This document shows, in pieces, positions 51 to 7,295 of a stretch of DNA of 36,861 nt. The notes below the pieces were generated by a model. It was not told the DNA's origin, made no database searches, and saw nothing but the letters and a program-made list of their open reading frames with translations. Each line of letters begins with the position of its first letter. The stretch's first letter is position 1. The stretch comes from a virus. Taxonomy: Duplodnaviria > Caudoviricetes. A program made the position numbers and the translations under genes. The stretch covers positions 1-36,861 of the IMG/VR virus record IMGVR_UViG_3300021133_000014. One strand, 5' to 3'.

Positions 51-128
51 GACATCTTAGACCAACCGGTAGGAGTCGTCTGTCTCAGAAACAGAAATGT
101 ATGGGTTCGAATCCCTTAGATGTTACCA
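51..128 (+). tRNA. tRNA-Leu(CAG), short variable loop
   Basis: Acceptor GACATCT/AGATGTT, A73, CCA; anticodon arm TCTGT-CTCAGAA-ACAGA; T loop TTCGAAT. Confidence 0.9.
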
Positions 129-136
129 AATTTTAT

Positions 137-213
137 GGTGGTATGATGCAATTGGAAGACATTTATTACTCAAAATAATGATTTTAAGAGTTCGACTCTC
201 TTTACCACTACCA
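137..213 (+). tRNA. tRNA-Leu(CAA), short variable loop
   Basis: GGTGGTA/TACCACT, A73, CCA; TATTA-CTCAAAA-TAATG; AAGAG-TTCGACT-CTCTT. Confidence 0.9.
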
Positions 214-215
214 AT

Positions 216-689
216 TTACTTTCGTTTATTTTTTCCACGGTAAGTATTAGTTAAAGCATGACAATTTGGACACAATAATGTAAGATTTTCAATTCTATTA
301 TCGGCTCGATTTCCGTTTATATGTTCTAATTCTAAAGGAATTGACCTATCCAGCCAATTAGTTAATTCACATCTATAACATTTCAACTCAAACACCTTTT
401 CTTTAATTAATTTATTTTTAAGACAATAAGTGTGAGTATATGATGAATTTTCTATTAAAATTTTATACAATGGAATGGAATTATCTCTTTCACGATTTTT
501 ATATCCCTGACGTTTTCGTTTTGTTAGTTCCCAATGGGAAGTGTCTATATTCCACGTTAATATTCTACGTTTCATTGTAGCATAATTTCCACCGGCTTTT
601 ATAATACCTAAAAGTTCTAATAAATGCCCCATACTTTCAGATTTTTTTACGCATTCCGAAAATTGTTCTTTTTCATATTTGTGTTTCAT
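216..689 (-). CDS. HNH homing endonuclease, antisense within the tRNA array
   Basis: CYRC...LELEHINGNRADNRIENLTLLCPNCH is an HNH motif; start moved to ATG 689 (MKHKYEK), just downstream of a TATTTAT motif. Confidence 0.88.
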   Translation of the reverse strand: MKHKYEKEQFSECVKKSESMGHLLELLGIIKAGGNYATMKRRILTWNIDTSHWELTKRKRQGYKNRERDNSIPLYKILIENSSYTHTYCLKNKLIKEKVFELKCYRCELTNWLDRSIPLELEHINGNRADNRIENLTLLCPNCHALTNTYRGKNKRK

Positions 690-752
690 ATAAAATAAAT
701 ATAAATGGAACAACTTAAAATGAACTTATATTTCAGTTCTGCTTATTTATAC

Positions 753-831
753 GTCTGTGTAGCCCAACTGGAAGCATGGCAACAAACTTAAAACTTGTAA
801 AGTGTGGGTTCGAATCCCTCCACAGACACCA
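753..831 (+). tRNA. tRNA-Leu(TAA), short variable loop
   Basis: GTCTGTG/CACAGAC, A73, CCA; loop CTTAAAA; T loop TTCGAAT. Confidence 0.88.
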
Positions 832-835
832 ATTT

Positions 836-1000
836 ATGAATACAAAAGAAAACCGAATCAAACAGGAGGAAGATTATATCGCCTTTCTTGAAAAACGTTT
901 GAATAGTGAAAACTATAAGAAGAATGTTAGTGGTGAAGAATACACTAAAACCGAACAAAAGTTAAAGAAAGCTCGGTTAGTATTAAAGATTTTAAGGTAA
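836..1000 (+). CDS. small hypothetical helical protein (MNTKENRIKQEE...)
   Basis: The ORF-track 5' part overlaps tRNA-Leu; ATG at 836 is 4 nt after the CCA. Confidence 0.6.
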   Translation: MNTKENRIKQEEDYIAFLEKRLNSENYKKNVSGEEYTKTEQKLKKARLVLKILR

Positions 1001-1009
1001 TTTGTACAT

Positions 1010-1109
1010 TGAGTGATGTTCAGAAAGTATTATCCTATGCAGGGGTATGTAGGGTAAGCCTTGTTCAGGCGACAATAGAACATGGGGTAAAAATCCTCAA
1101 ACTCCACCA
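1010..1109 (+). ncRNA. degenerate tRNA-like element ending CTCCACCA
   Basis: T-arm-like TGGGG-TAAAAAT-CCTCA, partial acceptor GAGT/ACTC, CCA end; inner stem ATGTTC/GAACAT encloses two hairpins; no recognisable D or anticodon arm. Confidence 0.4.
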
Positions 1110-1113
1110 TTTA

Positions 1114-1177
1114 AAGATATCAACCGCAATCAAAATAAAATCCGCCTAATACGCAGAACTAAAAAAGATGGTATCTT
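1114..1177 (+). ncRNA. candidate small RNA closed by AAGATATCA/TGGTATCTT
   Basis: 9-bp terminal stem, A-rich interior; same design as 6127-6316. Confidence 0.35.
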
Positions 1178-1186
1178 GTTTTTAAC

Positions 1187-1260
1187 GCATCCATAAGTCA
1201 ATGGTAAGCTGGCAGGCTTTTACCCTGTTAATCTCGGTTCGATTCCGGGTGGATGCACCA
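1187..1260 (+). tRNA. tRNA-Lys(TTT)
   Basis: GCATCCA/TGGATGC, A73, CCA; GCAGG-CTTTTAC-CCTGT; T loop TTCGATT. Confidence 0.92.
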
Positions 1261-1304
1261 ATTTATATAGTAAAATCATCTTTAACTTTATATTTATATG
1301 AGCG

Positions 1305-1700
1305 ATTAAGCTAAAAGACATACTAAATGAGACATTAGAATCCGATAAAAAACGGGCATATTCTTGGCAGATGCCAAATGGAACTTTTATTCCAATCAAA
1401 TACTCACACGGTTCAGATGCTCGTAATATATTATGGCAGGCCACAAAAAATAAAAACGATTTCAATGATGCCTCAGACCATATATTAGATTTATGGAAAC
1501 TCGGTTGGCAAAGAATCACAAATTCAAATTATCTTAAAGAATTGTGCACAAACAACTCTCTCCACAAACCGAATCAATTACAGAAAAGAGAATTGATAAA
1601 TTTGGCAATTGAATTAGAGTCTAATAAAGTAACATGGGATAACGATGAAGAAGATACCGTTATTTGGTCTTCTGACGATGTTATGGAAATTAAATCTTGA
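1305..1700 (+). CDS. hypothetical protein with N-terminal IKLKDILNE motif; start uncertain
   Basis: Frame is open from 1302 (AIKLKDILNETLE...); the ATG at 1298 is one base out of frame; first in-frame ATG is 1371. Confidence 0.6.
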   Translation: MKLKDILNETLESDKKRAYSWQMPNGTFIPIKYSHGSDARNILWQATKNKNDFNDASDHILDLWKLGWQRITNSNYLKELCTNNSLHKPNQLQKRELINLAIELESNKVTWDNDEEDTVIWSSDDVMEIKS

Positions 1701-1724
1701 CTTCTCAATTCGGTAATGTATAAT
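1697..1724 (+). promoter_or_regulatory. sigma70-like promoter TTGACT-N16-TATAAT
   Basis: Near-consensus boxes; ATG 1730 follows 5 nt after the -10 box (leaderless). Confidence 0.7.
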
Positions 1725-1729
1725 TTGGG

Positions 1730-2128
1730 ATGTTTAAGTCTAGTGGAATAATTCATTATGATAAATCCGATGGAGATAGAGTTACCGTAAGTGTGGAACA
1801 ATCCATTGGAGATTATTACTATTCTCTAATTCCTAAATATTACCGAGCATTAAAACCAAGATGGAATGCCCACGTAACCGTCGTAAGCCCAATAGACCCA
1901 ATTATTAATTGGGATAAATGGGGAAATAGAGAAGGCCAAGTTGCAAATTTCGTGTACGACTATAATATTTTATATGAAAAAAATTATTGGTGGTTCAATT
2001 TATGGTCAGTTGAAATGGAAGATATTCGTAAAGAATTAGGATTGTCTATAATAAGTAGAATAACAATTCCGCCATTAGGATATTTAAAATGTTTTCATTG
2101 TACTTTGGGTAAAGGATTTAATTTATGA
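1730..2128 (+). CDS. 2H phosphoesterase family protein (paralogue 1)
   Basis: Two HxT motifs, AHVTVV and FHCTLG; 132 aa. Confidence 0.65.
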   Translation: MFKSSGIIHYDKSDGDRVTVSVEQSIGDYYYSLIPKYYRALKPRWNAHVTVVSPIDPIINWDKWGNREGQVANFVYDYNILYEKNYWWFNLWSVEMEDIRKELGLSIISRITIPPLGYLKCFHCTLGKGFNL

Positions 2129-2694
2129 ATTATACTTGTCATAGTGGTGGTTGTCCCGGTGCTGATATGTTCTGGGAAAACGAAGGCGATAAATACGGTG
2201 TTAAAACCATCGCTTATTCTTTTTATGGTCATACGCAAAAAGGTAAGAATAGAAAGATTCTAGAAAGACCGGAATTAAATGAAGGATTTGAAGCAGTATT
2301 AAGAGCTAATAAAGTTCTAAAAAAATATCCACAAGGTCAACCAACCTATATAAAAAATTTATTATCTAGGAATTGGTTTCAAATCAAGAATTCAGATGCG
2401 GTTTTCGCTATAGCGAAAAAGTTTTTATCAAAATCGACTGTGGATGGAGGAACAGGATGGGCGGTTCAAATGGCAATTGACTGTGATAAACCTACGTTTG
2501 TATTTCTTCAAGACGATATGGGAGGTTCTTGGTTTCGATATATGCCAATTGTTGGATTTGAGTGTCTTTGGGGCGAAATTCCAAAGTTGACACAAAATTT
2601 TGCCGGTATCGGAACTAGAGAATTGCAAGAGAGTGGTAAAGATGCCATCAGAACAATTTTTAAAGTAAATTTCGGATGTCAATTAACGGGGTAG
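2125..2694 (+). CDS. SLOG/YpsA-like Rossmannoid nucleotide-binding protein
   Basis: HSGGCPGAD, GGTGWAV and FAGIGTRE motifs; ATGA overlap with the 2H gene; stop codon lies inside tRNA-Asp. Confidence 0.6.
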   Translation: MNYTCHSGGCPGADMFWENEGDKYGVKTIAYSFYGHTQKGKNRKILERPELNEGFEAVLRANKVLKKYPQGQPTYIKNLLSRNWFQIKNSDAVFAIAKKFLSKSTVDGGTGWAVQMAIDCDKPTFVFLQDDMGGSWFRYMPIVGFECLWGEIPKLTQNFAGIGTRELQESGKDAIRTIFKVNFGCQLTG

Positions 2695-2764
2695 TAACTC
2701 AATTGGTTAGAGTATTCGGCTGTCGCCCGAAAAGTTGCGAGTTCGAGTCTCGTCTATCTCGCCA
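2688..2764 (+). tRNA. tRNA-Asp(GTC)
   Basis: GGGGTAG/CTATCTC, G73, CCA; TTCGG-CTGTCGC-CCGAA; T loop TTCGAGT. Confidence 0.92.
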
Positions 2765-2775
2765 TTTTTAAACGC

Positions 2776-2803
2776 TTGACATATCCACAAGATGTGTTAT
2801 TAT
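2776..2803 (+). promoter_or_regulatory. sigma70-like promoter TTGACA-N16-TATTAT
   Basis: ATG 2809 follows 5 nt after the -10 box. Confidence 0.6.
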
Positions 2804-2808
2804 ATTTT

Positions 2809-3021
2809 ATGAAGAAATGTGAAAAGTGCGATATTGAGATGACAATCGTCGAACACGGCGACCCCAAAATTGGGGATATGGGCATTTCCGTCAGAACATC
2901 CCATTATAGATGTCCCACATGTAATAGATGGGATTATTGCCCTGATGCTGCTGCTAATTTTTTAGCGCAAACAATTGATAAATCTATTTTGGATAAATTA
3001 CTGAAAAATTATAATTTATGA
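2809..3021 (+). CDS. small zinc-ribbon protein
   Basis: CEKC...CPTC; the ORF-track TTG start is the -35 box, so the start was moved to ATG 2809. Confidence 0.65.
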   Translation: MKKCEKCDIEMTIVEHGDPKIGDMGISVRTSHYRCPTCNRWDYCPDAAANFLAQTIDKSILDKLLKNYNL

Positions 3022-3260
3022 TATGTGAAATTGTAAATTCCAAATTTGAAAACGACATATATAAAAATATAGTTTATATAAACGGAATGCCTGCGTTCAT
3101 CATCAGTGATGATGGTAGTAGTAAAGAGCCAATTACACCAAATGGAATGGTAATGTATGGGAATAATGAAGATAAAATTGATGGTTGGTTAAAAAATTTC
3201 CCCAACATAGAAAAGACATTCGAGTTTGTTGGTAAATATGACCACATTTATGAAAAATAA
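3018..3260 (+). CDS. hypothetical protein
   Basis: ATGA overlap with the upstream ORF. Confidence 0.6.
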   Translation: MICEIVNSKFENDIYKNIVYINGMPAFIISDDGSSKEPITPNGMVMYGNNEDKIDGWLKNFPNIEKTFEFVGKYDHIYEK

Positions 3261-3525
3261 ATGGCCTACTTTAGAAGGTAGATTAAATCAACCATTGACA
3301 ACAGAACGTCAAGCGTTGGAACAATTACAAACTATGATGCCTCTTTCAAAACGTGGATTAAAACGTCTATTGAAATGTATCAAACTAGATGAAAAGTTAC
3401 AAGCTACTCGTAAAAAAGTTCAAGCAACAGTTGACGCACAACCAAAGTCTGTGACATTTGAAGAAGCGAAGAAACAAATAGAAAGTAAGTATGAACAAAT
3501 ATCAAAAAAGACACCTATTCCGTGA
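3250..3525 (+). CDS. hypothetical basic protein
   Basis: ATG 3250 overlaps the end of the upstream ORF; tightly packed operon. Confidence 0.55.
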   Translation: MKNKWPTLEGRLNQPLTTERQALEQLQTMMPLSKRGLKRLLKCIKLDEKLQATRKKVQATVDAQPKSVTFEEAKKQIESKYEQISKKTPIP

Positions 3526-3802
3526 AGGTGTATTTGAAAGAGACGGTCGTAAATGTAGAATGTGCAATAATAAAGAAAAATTAGATGCACATCATATTAC
3601 AGACCGCCACGAAATGCCAAATGGTGGATATGTTCTAAATAATGGTATTTCCTTGTGTCCAGATTGTCATTGGAATGCCGAACATTTTCATATTACACAT
3701 GGTAAATGGAATACAGATGGGTTTCATCCAAATGATTTATATAAAAAAATAGGTTCATCATACGAGAAAGCTAGAAAAGACAGTGAAAATTTGCCCGTTT
3801 AG
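3491..3802 (+). CDS. small HNH endonuclease
   Basis: RDGRKCRMC...LDAHHI...NGISLCPDCH; stop codon lies inside tRNA-Thr. Confidence 0.85.
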   Translation: MNKYQKRHLFREGVFERDGRKCRMCNNKEKLDAHHITDRHEMPNGGYVLNNGISLCPDCHWNAEHFHITHGKWNTDGFHPNDLYKKIGSSYEKARKDSENLPV

Positions 3803-3866
3803 TATAATGGCATTACTCTTCCCTTGTAACGAAGAAACGTCAGTTCGATTCTGACACCGGGCTCCA
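3793..3866 (+). tRNA. tRNA-Thr(TGT)
   Basis: GCCCGTT/ACCGGGC (one mismatch), T73, CCA; loop CTTGTAA; GTCAG-TTCGATT-CTGAC. Confidence 0.88.
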
Positions 3867-3889
3867 ATTTGAAAGGTAATATTACAGAA

Positions 3890-4297
3890 ATGTTTTTAGG
3901 AAAAGGAAAAATTCATTACAACGATGAAAATGGATTTAGAGTAACGGTTGAAGTTGGTCAAGATTTATCGGATTATTATTCGTTAATACCGTTATATAGA
4001 AGACCATTTAAATCAAAGTGGCCGGCTCACATCACAGTCGTAAGACCTAAATTAGAAATTCCACCAAGAATACGATATTGGGATGACTATGAAGGCGAAG
4101 AAGTTGAGTTTATGTATGACTCATACGTTCTTGAAGGAAATGGATATTTCTTTTTAAATGTGTGGTGTAAGAGATTGGAATCAATTAGAGAAGAACTTGG
4201 TATGTCAATTTATAGTAAATATACATTACCACCATCGGGTCATATAAAATGTTTTCATATGACTATTGGAAAATACGAACAGATTTTTGATTGTTAA
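3890..4297 (+). CDS. 2H phosphoesterase family protein (paralogue 2)
   Basis: AHITVV and FHMTIG; colinear with 1730-2128 (RVTVxV, DYY-SLIP, IRxELG, PPxGxxKCFHxTxGK). Confidence 0.65.
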   Translation: MFLGKGKIHYNDENGFRVTVEVGQDLSDYYSLIPLYRRPFKSKWPAHITVVRPKLEIPPRIRYWDDYEGEEVEFMYDSYVLEGNGYFFLNVWCKRLESIREELGMSIYSKYTLPPSGHIKCFHMTIGKYEQIFDC

Positions 4298-4306
4298 CAA
4301 ATATGT

Positions 4307-4399
4307 AGTTTGGTGTCGGAGTGGTTTAACGTATTGGCCTTGATAGCCATGCCGAACCCTTGATTGGGTTGGTCGAAGGTTCGAATCCTTCTCAAATTG
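4307..4399 (+). tRNA. atypical tRNA-Ser(TGA) with no encoded CCA and an extended acceptor helix
   Basis: Loop CTTGATA, long variable arm, GAAGG-TTCGAAT-CCTTC, G73 followed by CATA; 4302-4313 can pair with 4392-4403. Confidence 0.65.
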
Positions 4400-4411
4400 C
4401 ATAATTTATTA

Positions 4412-4439
4412 TTGACTATTTCATAAATGATGATATAGT
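4412..4439 (+). promoter_or_regulatory. sigma70-like promoter TTGACT-N16-TATAGT
   Basis: Ends 8 nt upstream of ATG 4448. Confidence 0.6.
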
Positions 4440-4447
4440 TATTGTCA

Positions 4448-4555
4448 ATGGAAGAAGATGATTATTATGACGCCGAAGAAGAGGAACGTCGTCAACAAGA
4501 AGCCGAATCCTACGATGGATTATTAAATGCCTGGGAAATTACAGGCTTTGATTAA
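4448..4555 (+). CDS. 35-aa highly acidic peptide MEEDDYYDAEEEERRQQEAESYDGLLNAWEITGFD
   Basis: Hand translation; below the ORF-track cutoff; has its own promoter and fills the gap before tRNA-Ser. Confidence 0.55.
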   Translation: MEEDDYYDAEEEERRQQEAESYDGLLNAWEITGFD

Positions 4556-4564
4556 AGAATTTAT

Positions 4565-4657
4565 GGTTGGGTGGCCGAGTCCGGCTGATGGCGATAGTCT
4601 TGAAAACTATAGCGGCCTAAAAAACCGCCGGGGGTTCGAATCCCTCTCCAACCGCCA
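4565..4657 (+). tRNA. tRNA-Ser(TGA)
   Basis: GGTTGGG/TCCAACC, G73, CCA; ATAGT-CTTGAAA-ACTAT; long variable arm. Confidence 0.93.
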
Positions 4658-4715
4658 ATTTAATAGTTCGAATATTTTTATTCGTATTTATTCGAACTCG
4701 TTTATATGTATATTC

Positions 4716-5240
4716 ATGAAAAATGAAATACTTAAATTACGAAGTGAGGGAAAATCCTATAATGAAATAAAATCTATTCTTGGATGCTCTAAAGGAACCA
4801 TTGCTTATCATTGTGGCGATGGACAAAAAGACAAATGTAAATTACGTGTCAAAAATTATAAAAAAACTCTTACTGGAATTTTAAAAAGAAAAAAAGATAA
4901 TTTTAGTTTTGTTAATGGAAATAGGCATTGTTTACAAAAAAGAAAATCTTTGAATTTTTCATCTAATGAATTTAAAGACAAATTAATTAATACTCCAATC
5001 TGTTATTTAAGTGGTAGAAAAATAGATTTATTACAACCTAAAACATATCAATGTGACCATATAATACCTGTTTCAAAGGGCGGGGGATGTTCTTTTGATA
5101 ATTTAGGATTAACTTGTAAAGAAGCAAATTTTGCTAAAGGTGATATGATTTTAGAAGATTTTATACAACTTTGTAAAGAAATCTTAATATATCAAGGATT
5201 TAAAGTTGAGAAAAACCTTGACATTACTAAAGATATATAA
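4716..5240 (+). CDS. HNH homing endonuclease with N-terminal helix-turn-helix
   Basis: ILKLRSEGKSYNEIKSILGCSKGTIAYH (HTH); CYLSG...DHIIPVSKGG...NLGLTCKEANFAKG; ORF-track 5' extension overlaps tRNA-Ser. Confidence 0.85.
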   Translation: MKNEILKLRSEGKSYNEIKSILGCSKGTIAYHCGDGQKDKCKLRVKNYKKTLTGILKRKKDNFSFVNGNRHCLQKRKSLNFSSNEFKDKLINTPICYLSGRKIDLLQPKTYQCDHIIPVSKGGGCSFDNLGLTCKEANFAKGDMILEDFIQLCKEILIYQGFKVEKNLDITKDI

Positions 5241-5254
5241 TAGTTATTGATTAT

Positions 5255-5346
5255 GGTTCTGTGGGTGAGATGGATTAAACCAAGAGTTTGCTAAACTCTC
5301 GCAGCCTAAAAAACTGCCACCAGTTCGAATCTGGTCGGAACCGCCA
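5255..5346 (+). tRNA. tRNA-Ser(GCT)
   Basis: GGTTCTG/CGGAACC, G73, CCA; AGAGT-TTGCTAA-ACTCT; long variable arm. Confidence 0.93.
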
Positions 5347-5356
5347 AATTTTTAAT

Positions 5357-5433
5357 CGGAATGTAGCGTAATTGGTATCGCGCCTGGTTTGGGTCCAGGA
5401 GATTTCCGGGTTCGAGTCCCGGCATTCCGACCA
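5357..5433 (+). tRNA. tRNA-Pro(TGG)
   Basis: CGGAATG/CATTCCG, A73, CCA; CCTGG-TTTGGGT-CCAGG. Confidence 0.94.
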
Positions 5434-5441
5434 CATTTAAT

Positions 5442-5519
5442 GTGCGTGTGGCTCCAGCGGCAACGGCGTCTCATTTACACTGAGATTTATCACAGGTTCG
5501 AGTCCTGTCACGCATACCA
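5442..5519 (+). tRNA. tRNA-Val(TAC)
   Basis: GTGCGTG/CACGCAT, A73, CCA; TCTCA-TTTACAC-TGAGA. Confidence 0.92.
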
Positions 5520-5524
5520 TTTAC

Positions 5525-5602
5525 GGTGTCTTAGACCAACTGGCAGGAGTCGTTCGCCTGAGAAGTGAAAATGTATGAGTTCGAATCTCATAGACACCAC
5601 CA
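5525..5602 (+). tRNA. tRNA-Leu(GAG), short variable loop
   Basis: GGTGTCT/AGACACC, A73, CCA; TTCGC-CTGAGAA-GTGAA. Confidence 0.9.
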
Positions 5603-5614
5603 AAATTTCAACGC

Positions 5615-5642
5615 TTGACATTTAATAATTTAGATGTATATT
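5615..5642 (+). promoter_or_regulatory. sigma70-like promoter TTGACA-N16-TATATT for the RNase P RNA
   Basis: Perfect -35 box; predicted start (~5648-5649) coincides with the 5' end of helix P1. Confidence 0.7.
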
Positions 5643-5647
5643 ATTGA

Positions 5648-6045
5648 TGTGACGTAAGCGACTCTACGCTGGTAATAAGTCCGTTCGAATCGGAAGTTGA
5701 TGAAACTAGGCTTGACAATGGTTCAAGATATTACCAGAGGAAATTCGCCTCTGTACAGCAGATGTTGGGAGAATGTAACGTGGGTAAAACCATAAAATAG
5801 TCGGAGGAAACTTAAAGTGAAAGACTTTAAGGGAAAACAGGTAGACAAGTAATCCAATACACGTCCGATAGTTCCTGTTCATTACATTCGTTTGTACCAC
5901 AAATTAACAGTAATCCTAAAGTTCCAAAGGCTAGTGTTGGCCGATGTAAAGGAAAGGTTGGAGCAGTTCTCTTTAACGGAGAACCAGTAGAAATACTGAG
6001 ATAAATGTAGAGATAAAACAAAACGGCGGTTACGGCTACGTCACA
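5648..6045 (+). ncRNA. rnpB: divergent bacterial-type RNase P RNA (phage-encoded)
   Basis: P1 TGTGACGTA/TACGTCACA; P2 CTCTAC/GTAGAG; P3 CTGGTAATA/TATTACCAG; CR-I GAGGAAATTCGCC pairs with CR-V ACAAAACGGCGGTTA (P4 with bulged U); P5 CTGT/ACAG; P15 TCC/GGA with GGT in L15; P18 CAGTA-GAAA-TACTG; CR-IV AGATAAAT. Confidence 0.85.
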
Positions 6046-6049
6046 AAAT

Positions 6050-6123
6050 GGGGTCATCGTCCAATGGTAAGACACGACGCTGGCAGTGTTGAAATAAGGG
6101 TTCGATTCCCTTTGGCTCCACCA
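6050..6123 (+). tRNA. tRNA-Ala(GGC)
   Basis: GGGGTCA/TGGCTCC with G3:U70, A73, CCA; loop CTGGCAG. Confidence 0.92.
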
Positions 6124-6126
6124 ATT

Positions 6127-6316
6127 TAGATACGGTAACAGCAGATAAAAATATCTAGCTAAAAAACAAGCCTAACAAGGCTCACAATCCTGTCTTTGAC
6201 AGGGGTAGCAGTGACTACTGTAAAAACGCCCAACAGAGTAAAGTTGTAAAAAGACCACTCAACAATGGATAAGTTGTAAAAATGGTCCAGGAGATAACCT
6301 TAAAATTCTGTATCTA
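6127..6316 (+). ncRNA. candidate ~190-nt multi-hairpin RNA of unknown class
   Basis: Terminal stem TAGATACGG/CTGTATCTA enclosing about 7 short hairpins with A-rich linkers; no ORF. Confidence 0.55.
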
Positions 6317-6366
6317 GTCTTCTATATTATGAGAAGATACAATTCCCTCTTGTGAGGGAGTTTATG

Positions 6367-6440
6367 GGGGCCGTGGTAAAGTGGGAATACGTTTCACTCG
6401 CAATGAAAAGGCCCGAGTTCGATTCTCGGCGGCTCCACCA
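6367..6440 (+). tRNA. tRNA-Ala(CGC)
   Basis: GGGGCCG/CGGCTCC with G3:U70, A73, CCA; TTTCA-CTCGCAA-TGAAA. Confidence 0.92.
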
Positions 6441-6530
6441 ATTTTGTAAGTTTTTATACTTATATTGTCATATTTATTATCACAAACCCCAATGGTTTGT
6501 TGAAATAACAATTAACATAAAGGAAAAAAT

Positions 6531-6704
6531 ATGAGTATCGTAATAGTAGCATCCATTGTCGGTGTTGTAACATTTATCGTCGGCGTATTGGTCGGACGTA
6601 AACACGTCGCAGTAGTCAATAAAGTAGTGGCCGATGCAGTAGTAGTGGCAACAACCGCAAAAACAGTAGTGGCAGAAGTCTCTACTGATGCAAAGAAACT
6701 TTAA
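6531..6704 (+). CDS. 57-aa single-pass membrane protein, Val-rich
   Basis: MSIVIVASIVGVVTFIVGVLVGRKH...; AAGGA Shine-Dalgarno upstream; hand translation. Confidence 0.65.
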   Translation: MSIVIVASIVGVVTFIVGVLVGRKHVAVVNKVVADAVVVATTAKTVVAEVSTDAKKL

Positions 6705-6715
6705 GTTGTCTTTAT

Positions 6716-6789
6716 TGGGGATTTGTATAATGGTATTACAGTCGGCTCTGAACCGATAGACGAAGGTTCGATTCCTTCATCCCCAGCCA
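6716..6789 (+). tRNA. tRNA-Gln(CTG)
   Basis: TGGGGAT/ATCCCCA, G73, CCA; GTCGG-CTCTGAA-CCGAT. Confidence 0.93.
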
Positions 6790-6796
6790 GTTTCAT

Positions 6797-6832
6797 AAAA
6801 CACCTTCCATTTTTGGTTGGTGTTTTCTTTTT
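6797..6832 (+). terminator. probable intrinsic terminator
   Basis: AAAACACC...GGTGTTTT stem followed by CTTTTT. Confidence 0.5.
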
Positions 6833-6879
6833 GATGTTATAATATCATTTGATATATTTATATTATAACTCACCGTTTT

Positions 6880-6973
6880 GGTTGTGTGGCTGAGTGGCTA
6901 TAAGGCACCTGATTGGAAATTAGGAGGTTCGGTGAAAGCCGGCCCGTAGGTTCGAATCCTATCACAACCGCCA
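6880..6973 (+). tRNA. tRNA-Ser(GGA)
   Basis: GGTTGTG/CACAACC, G73, CCA; loop TTGGAAA; long variable arm. Confidence 0.93.
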
Positions 6974-6977
6974 TTTT

Positions 6978-7199
6978 ATGTTTAATTGGATACGAAACTG
7001 GTTTAAAAAAGAAGAACCTGAGATAACTACCAAGTTCATCTTACCAAATGGCAAACCATTTAATATCGATTCTTTAAGAATTCAATTAGATATGGAATCA
7101 TGTCCTCTTCATACGGATTATACCGGCTCAACTCCACCAATAAATAATTGTAACATTTGTTGGGAATATCATAGCAGAAAACACCGTTGGTCTAAATAA
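6978..7199 (+). CDS. small hypothetical protein with Cys/His cluster
   Basis: CPLH...CNICWEYH; sits between two tRNAs with 4-nt gaps on each side. Confidence 0.6.
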   Translation: MFNWIRNWFKKEEPEITTKFILPNGKPFNIDSLRIQLDMESCPLHTDYTGSTPPINNCNICWEYHSRKHRWSK

Positions 7200-7203
7200 T
7201 TTT

Positions 7204-7295
7204 GGTTAGTAGGTAGATGTTGGTTCGCTACGTTAGTTTCGAAAACTAATCCGGCATTGCGTCCGGCGGGGGTTCAATTCCCTCATTAACCGCCA
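7204..7295 (+). tRNA. tRNA-Ser(CGA)
   Basis: GGTTAGT/ATTAACC, G73, CCA; TTAGT-TTCGAAA-ACTAA; long variable arm; A instead of U at position 8. Confidence 0.87.

Follow-up and report, generated by a model that had tools for sequence, protein, structure and literature searches.

RNase P RNA is commonly treated as a cellular gene, and its bacterial type B form (RF00011) is defined by P5.1 and P10.1 and by the lack of P6, P16, and P17. The closest described relatives of the locus reported here are reduced or diverged cellular RNAs. In the accessible sections of PMC4919922 and PMC12974513, the minimal P RNA of Pyrobaculum and the Thermoproteaceae (type P or T; Lai et al. 2010) retains the catalytic domain and has lost nearly all of the specificity domain, CR-II and CR-III included; it is archaeal and chromosomal, whereas the phage family combines a bacterial P18, P6, and L15 GGU with exchangeable inserts. 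Diverged CPR RNase P RNAs also lack specificity-domain helices and were overlooked at standard model thresholds, but they are cellular, and about two-thirds of them, in the part of PMC8172020 available, are without the CCA-binding motif that the phage family keeps. Theta ribozymes of gut phages, as presented in the available portion of PMC10879173, are likewise phage-encoded catalytic RNAs beside phage tRNAs with a proposed role in tRNA maturation; they are, however, HDV-like self-cleavers at tRNA 3′ ends with an unrelated fold, and that portion reports no phage RNase P.

No description of a phage or viral RNase P RNA was found in the full-text literature, a search that left most subscription journals outside its reach. 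The accessible text of PMC8172020, PMC10879173, and bioRxiv 2025.10.30.685624 speaks of RNase P solely as an enzyme of cells or as a tool. Within the sections at hand, the words “phage” and “virus” are absent from PMC7191817 and “RNase P” from PMC10690425, whose table of 10,006 candidate RNAs could hold fragments of the family or of the module described below.

The window, the whole 36,861-nt stretch of DNA analyzed, is a 36.9-kb piece of a large tailed phage (completeness estimate 10%) with genes for baseplate wedge, primase, RuvC-like, and PhoH proteins; one related phage is a complete record of 365 kb. A PhoH search assigned no host. Within a tRNA array on this window lies a 398-nt RNA gene that, judged by sequence comparison, is a conserved RNase P RNA carried by phages; it is of a new, reduced type and has a slot for exchangeable contents. 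A sequence-only reading had proposed a phage RNase P RNA here. Homology, selection on the fold, and phage context uphold that proposal, but the RNA is a catalytic domain with a P7-P10-P11 stub and not a full-length molecule. Its parts are as follows.

51..7295, + strand: tRNA array of 17 genes, 16/17 with encoded CCA
5615..5642, + strand: match to a sigma-70-type promoter (spacer 16 nt), lying 5 nt 5′ of P1 (pattern scan)
5648..6045, + strand: RNase P RNA gene, 398 nt (fold; family profile E = 2.7e-44)
5648-5656/6037-6045, plus 5658-5659/6035-6036, + strand: P1, fully paired, closing the gene
5662-5667/6007-6012, + strand: P2, 100% paired, with two-sided changes in 6/6 pairs across 26 relatives
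5669..5737 (stem 5669-5677/5729-5737), + strand: P3 with a multi-hairpin insert particular to this lineage; relatives differ in P3 length
5737..5750, + strand: CR-I and the P4 5′ strand, the bulged U69 equivalent being 5745
5751-5754/5907-5910, + strand: P5
5756-5760/5935-5939, + strand: P6 pseudoknot, 5 bp
5761-5763/5903-5905, + strand: P7, with no P8 or P9 after it
5766-5768/5897-5899, + strand: P10/P11-like stack
5771-5778/5882-5889, + strand: helix closing the variable slot
5772..5888, + strand: 117-nt variable slot in the place of the specificity domain (8-163 nt among relatives)
5889..5896, + strand: P11 bulge, with U where 97% of relatives have A
5911-5913, + strand: J5/15 (J5/15 to P15 region, 5911..5964)
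5914-5916/5960-5962, + strand: P15
5922-5925/5951-5954, + strand: P16
5929-5931/5940-5942, + strand: P17
5956-5958, + strand: L15 with the CCA-pairing GGU (sequence motif)
5966-5971/5979-5984, + strand: extra hairpin before P18, missing from the shortest relatives
5985-5989/5994-5998, + strand: P18 with GAAA cap, missing from the shortest relatives (the pair of hairpins spans 5966..5998)
5999..6007, + strand: CR-IV (J18/2), same sequence in 42/74 cores
6018..6032, + strand: CR-V and the P4 3′ strand (6024-6031)
6050..6123, + strand: tRNA-Ala(GGC), 4 nt 3′ of the RNase P RNA gene

The sequence-only reading had placed P1, P2, P3, and P5 where they are listed, and all four pair fully there; the CR-I-type and CR-V-type motifs, J5/15, P15 with its CCA-binding GGU, the GAAA-capped P18, and the 4-nt gap to tRNA-Ala were also located as it described them. 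P6, P7, P10/11, P16, P17, and the hairpin before P18 are present and went undescribed, and the non-canonical specificity domain was overlooked. Checked against fetched rnpB, its comparison of P4 with E. coli is right about three swapped pairs, one U·G pair, and the retained bulged U69 but leaves out a mismatch: at the final P4 position, E. coli has G74-C353 but the window (5750/6024) and the relative L318 have U·C. In the window, 7/8 P4 pairs form. Inserts in P3 and in the slot that takes the usual place of the specificity domain account for the length of 398 nt. The RNA folds with z = −2.77, and 0/100 shuffles were equally stable.

Like E. coli M1 RNA (rnpB, RF00010), the phage RNA has P1-P7 and P15-P18 in the same order and pairing, with the P4/P6 pseudoknots, and it shares CR-I, CR-IV, CR-V, J5/15, the L15 GGU, and a GNRA-capped P18. 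Unlike M1, it is phage-encoded, is without P8, P9, P12-P14, CR-II, and CR-III, has U68·G358 for a G-C pair, and carries a short P7, an extra hairpin before P18, and a variable slot past P11. Features of RNase P RNA of any type are in place (P4 with CR-I, CR-V, and the bulged U; P1, P2, P3, P5, and CR-IV), except for the CR-II/CR-III double T-loop: the slot holds no shared motif, and loose CR-II-like and CR-III-like patterns occur in only 2/75 cores each. For type A, the P6 pseudoknot with P16/P17 and the L15 GGU are present while P8, P9, P12, P13, and P14 are absent; type B does not fit, as P6, P16, and P17 are all there. Going by these features, the RNA is built like, and descended from, a type A RNase P RNA.

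The sequence-only reading had proposed a covariance-model (cmsearch) check, and this fails for the window copy, which has no match to the Rfam RNase P models, RF00010 and RF00011 included, at gathering score or at E ≤ 10. The best family member against RF00010 is a copy in the cultured phage DLP6 (54.7 bits, E = 5.4e-14), below the gathering cut-off of 100 bits; L182 reaches 47.1 bits (E = 3.5e-10) against RF00373, also below cut-off, and three of the five members scanned (L320, L099, and L132) had no RNase P match among the best 150 of 160 rows. Profiles of canonical P RNA sequences found nothing significant in the family (best match E = 0.014). The family searches themselves relied on HMMER profiles and on a sequence-only model. 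The family profile built from 26 relatives recovers the window (E = 2.7e-44) and the DLP6 copy (E = 1.5e-18), both outside its training set, and does not find E. coli rnpB; the family model matches nothing on the E. coli chromosome. Because direct profile searches are insignificant, homology to RNase P RNA is transitive and structural.

Canonical RF00010-type RNAs also occur in viral contigs: 8/11 loci scanned pass the gathering score (L007, L021, L034, L049, L070, L081, L085, and L086), and the canonical or near-canonical set, which includes L050 and L073, lies on contigs with 3-28 tRNAs in the DNA examined. These RNAs likewise sit mostly inside tRNA arrays, but they are full-length canonical matches and form a separate lineage, of which the family model reaches only L050 (E = 0.0024).

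Relatives of the phage RNA were collected by two routes. With the neighboring protein as bait, 24 loci from related phages were recovered: 13 carry the full RNA before tRNA-Ala, two are edge-cut and hold the 3′ part, one starts at the P1 tail, and eight stop short. A 5′ motif pattern matched at least 118 viral stretches (by estimate ∼150) as well as 103 from metagenomes. We examined 227 matches, and the 116 that satisfied a CR-V/P4 filter contain 75 distinct cores, each 152-360 nt long, which make up the family in viral and metagenome contigs; this number is a lower bound. More general CR-I/IV/V patterns hit 61 and 24 viral stretches (the first set mostly chance) and yielded no member beyond identical copies, and a blastn search with the window RNA as query gave only chance matches among GenBank phages. 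One member reached through a short blastn match is the unannotated copy of ∼245 nt in the cultured Stenotrophomonas phage DLP6 (L407 502-750, KU682439.2, at about 105,774-106,022 of the record), just upstream of tRNA-Arg; “RNase P” and “ribonuclease” are absent from the accessible text of the DLP6 paper. The family is tied to tRNA genes, with a same-strand tRNA in 43/47 family loci of ≥ 2 kb vs 3/60 pattern matches that failed the filter, and a tRNA within 30 nt of CR-V in 19/75.

This distribution bears on whether the RNA is a misassembled or newly captured host rnpB, an explanation that a universal host gene invites and that is by now largely refuted and extremely improbable. The stretch 5648-6045 recurs unchanged in two IMG/VR contigs (L001 and L002), and a metagenome contig (L260) has the same core; the stretch is thus not a chimera, a concern raised in the sequence-only reading. 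The gene is syntenic before tRNA-Ala in the 13 full and two edge-cut loci among the 24 related phage loci, and in 185,579 prokaryote genomes a CR-V partner was seen, by eye, in 0/14 pattern matches.

The sequence-only reading had taken the exchanged P4 pairs as a sign of selection on the fold, and across the family this holds: every helix checked covaries, the P4 and P6 pseudoknots included. Since CR-I and U69 were in the search pattern and P4 pairing served as a filter, conservation there is partly built in. For P4 the 3′ strand was therefore relocated by anchors only, in 21 distinct sequence types with four free positions; 77/84 cells are Watson-Crick, against a null mean of 35.8 and maximum of 55, and 0/20,000 shuffles reach 77. 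One sequence type pairs 0/4 and is probably a mis-anchored match. A structure drawn from L320 was also scored on an alignment of 26 of the 75 members (short ones with a clear P1, the window excluded). In these 26 relatives, 93% of cells are paired vs 73% when shuffled and 35-47% when slid, 40/53 pairs show changes on both sides, and P6 is 91% paired with 3/4 pairs covarying. Residues outside the search pattern are conserved too: J5/15 YAA in 72/73 cores where it was located, L15 GGU-P15-GC in 68/74 by pattern (with GGU invariant in 26/26 aligned), and CR-IV in 72/74 cores.

The promoter named in the sequence-only reading is matched at 5615-5642, yet the scan alone is unenriched (36 sites vs 30.4 ± 5.5 expected). 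Among relatives, a promoter with a 16-nt spacer precedes 24/72 (shuffles 0.25%), compared with four for a 17-nt and two for an 18-nt spacer, and a word that we take to be boxA-like precedes 27/72 vs 0.07% of shuffles.

Where the specificity domain would be expected, P7 runs directly into the P10/P11 stub, and P8, P9, and the double T-loop are missing. Beyond the P11 bulge, the slot spans 8-163 nt in the 74 cores parsed, and its contents vary independently of the core, differing on identical cores and recurring on distant ones. L096, L097, and L239 share the same core, yet their inserts measure 119, 15, and 72 nt, and in 29/2701 pairs the cores are ≥ 93% identical with inserts unrelated or very unequal. 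Conversely, the window and L096 agree better in the insert than in the core (core 0.73, insert 0.84; medians 0.745 and 0.39), as do L190/L258 (core 0.69, insert 0.82) and L212/L268 (core 0.78, insert 0.97). Some slot inserts (L184, L257, and L313) can be translated as short open frames; two of these contain Cys-X-X-Cys pairs, and those of L184 and L257 are Cys-rich. Long structured inserts also occur in P3 (window 5678-5728; L227, L318, and L262) and in the P18 region (L302, L127, L293, L244, and L312), so there may be three variable sites.

In the window, the slot holds a compact pseudoknotted module.

5797..5881, + strand: pseudoknotted module, ∼85 nt (covariation, recurrence)
5800-5805/5864-5869, + strand: Pb, crossing Pd
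5811-5817/5825-5831, + strand: T-loop-type hairpin Pc, loop invariant in 5/5 copies
5832-5834/5853-5855, + strand: Pe, which never varies
5836-5841/5874-5879, + strand: Pd, crossing Pb

The module is found in four P RNAs (window, L096, L160, and L146) and in L357/L371, where it takes the position of the anticodon arm in a gene whose tRNA acceptor stem, D arm, and T arm are retained. The evidence for it comprises five sequences in total. In four of them, 96.5% of cells are paired vs 78.7% when shuffled, and 12/22 pairs change on both sides, including 4/6 in each of the crossing helices Pb and Pd; the linkers are conserved, and the Pc loop is, in our labeling, T-loop-like. A model from four copies found the fifth, in the L146 slot, without having been trained on it (41.7 bits, E = 1.7e-7; 352 kb searched). 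Against 4227 Rfam models, the module in the window and in L357 gave chance-level matches only, and the last module scan picked out 35 stretches with no additional copy among them. On a tree of cores without inserts, the presence of the module in its four P RNA carriers requires four changes, which well-supported branches make unavoidable; the scatter could also reflect one old gain and many losses.

The tRNA-shaped carrier (L357 555-724, − strand) and L408 (G005) also have a hairpin in the D loop, and ARAGORN, with introns allowed, calls no tRNA in the tRNA-shaped gene. Identities as a group I or II intron, hammerhead, twister, pistol, or cobalamin RNA were considered for the module and dropped, Rfam giving no support. 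The L359 group (10/15 module-pattern matches) was set aside because its layout differs; presumably, from its motifs, it is a group I intron. L359-L371, except L361, L364, L365, L368, and L371, represent a conserved structured element in large viral contigs.

The position of the module raises the alternative that it is a replacement specificity domain, gripping the tRNA elbow by its T-loop-type hairpin or another part and so improving binding. It occupies the exact place of the double T-loop, its T-loop-like loop is invariant in all five copies, and the window copy has a weakened P11 bulge. Set against this are the identical cores that carry 15-nt and 72-nt inserts instead, the 70/74 cores without a module, the presence of the module in a tRNA-like body on a record (86% complete) with no family P RNA match, and the fact that only one T-loop-like element is evident. 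We regard a replacement domain as quite unlikely. A passenger, dispensable for cleavage, is the more probable status of the module, since insert-poor twins of its carriers exist. As a first guess it would be a decoy for a host protein, an idea whose sole basis is its rapid turnover.

Taken together, we consider it probable that the family is a working catalytic-domain RNase P RNA, likely acting with host RnpA on phage tRNAs, with a slot that likely holds a passenger module. The RNA would be transcribed from its own promoter onward into tRNA-Ala; RNase P RNA and tRNA-Ala(GGC) are likely co-transcribed, and no terminator-like site was found between them. Given such a transcript, cleavage by RNase P at 6050, probably in trans, would at the same time liberate the 3′ end of the RNA itself. 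The pre-tRNA would be held by CCA-L15 pairing, the P11 bulge, J5/15, and J18/2, with no elbow contact, and the 5′ leaders of phage tRNAs, of which the array tRNAs are likely substrates, would be cut with host RnpA as protein partner. As the sequence-only reading had noted for the window, no RnpA-like ORF is evident: RnpA was found in 0/4 related phage records (two complete), Pfam and PHROG scans of 38 and 25 ORFs found no RnpA or tRNA-processing enzyme, and a HARP-type protein appeared in 0/5 records searched. Use of host RnpA is inferred from the lack of RnpA and HARP-type genes in these records.

The accessible sections of PMC13254310 describe as substrate contacts L15 GG-U/CCA pairing, a J18/2 leader contact, the bulged U, bulged adenines, and an elbow stack, and the family retains all of these but the elbow stack. 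In the available part of PMC4919922, the C-domain by itself is reported to cleave pre-tRNA, though at a lower rate and with weaker affinity. The same part of that source states that most archaeal P RNAs are inactive without proteins, which lends something to the idea that the phage RNA is catalytically silent and serves as a stable scaffold or as a sponge drawing host RnpA from host rnpB. The loss of the specificity domain and P8 contacts points the same way, as does a slot that accepts almost anything, small Cys-rich reading frames included. This account is nonetheless unlikely: the CCA-pairing GGU, J5/15, and J18/2 are conserved, elements that touch substrate and do not serve to stabilize a scaffold, and the family is tied to tRNA arrays.

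A functional family with a decaying window copy would account for the U74·C353 mismatch, for the A-to-U change in the P11 bulge, which hits one substrate contact described in the accessible text of PMC13254310, and for an end branch of 0.11 vs a median of 0.036. We judge decay very unlikely. The window departs from only 3/73 conserved columns: one departure is at a bulge A, and the other two compensate each other as a pair. At least three departures occur in 22/74 rows; its remaining helices pair fully, the promoter is intact, and L318 has the same mismatch. These departures lie within the range seen across the family, yet some doubt over the activity of the window copy remains.

A catalytic domain kept under selection without the elbow-reading domain would be a natural test of minimal RNase P in a bacterial cell. 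The family resembles the intermediate (catalytic domain plus P7/P10/P11) of the 2026 accretion model, as set out in the available portion of PMC12974513; in the phage this state most likely arose by loss. Pairs with the same core and different inserts (L096, L097, and L239), together with the DLP6 copy, which belongs to a cultured phage, open this question to direct testing. Modules would move by recombination between conserved flanks, with the stable fold as carrier, and the exchangeable slot suggests a route by which phages spread structured RNAs as well as a ready scaffold for expressing RNA cargo. More tentatively, and with the odds somewhat against it, phages may run a plug-in system, swapping self-folding modules between genomes in stable RNA bodies (the RNase P catalytic domain and a tRNA-shaped chassis), with the module as a new functional RNA class, for example a host-defense decoy or a small ribozyme, riding on a working viral RNase P.

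The tRNA array has further features of its own. A second tRNA-Ser(TGA) call at 4307-4400 scores low (38.2 bits), lacks CCA, and is possibly a pseudo-tRNA. Three HNH-type endonuclease genes lie within the array (216-713, − strand; 3491-3802, + strand; 4527-5240, + strand), the last beginning within a tRNA-Ser as called (4565-4657). Several array tRNAs decode codons rare in the phage's own genes (ORFs 10060-35216), such as Leu CTC (6) and CTG (19) vs TTA (238), and 12/12 long ORFs in that region terminate in TAA.

Between tRNA-Ala(GGC) and tRNA-Ala(CGC) lies a second unannotated structured RNA (6126-6316, + strand), for which an Rfam scan gave no notable match. It consists of a closing stem and several hairpins with A-rich linkers (folding z = −3.63), and GGA in several loops recalls, in our view, CsrB/RsmZ-type sponges. 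The RNA is conserved in seven related loci, with changes on both sides in 8/26 pairs, and one hairpin unit is doubled in the window and in L107.
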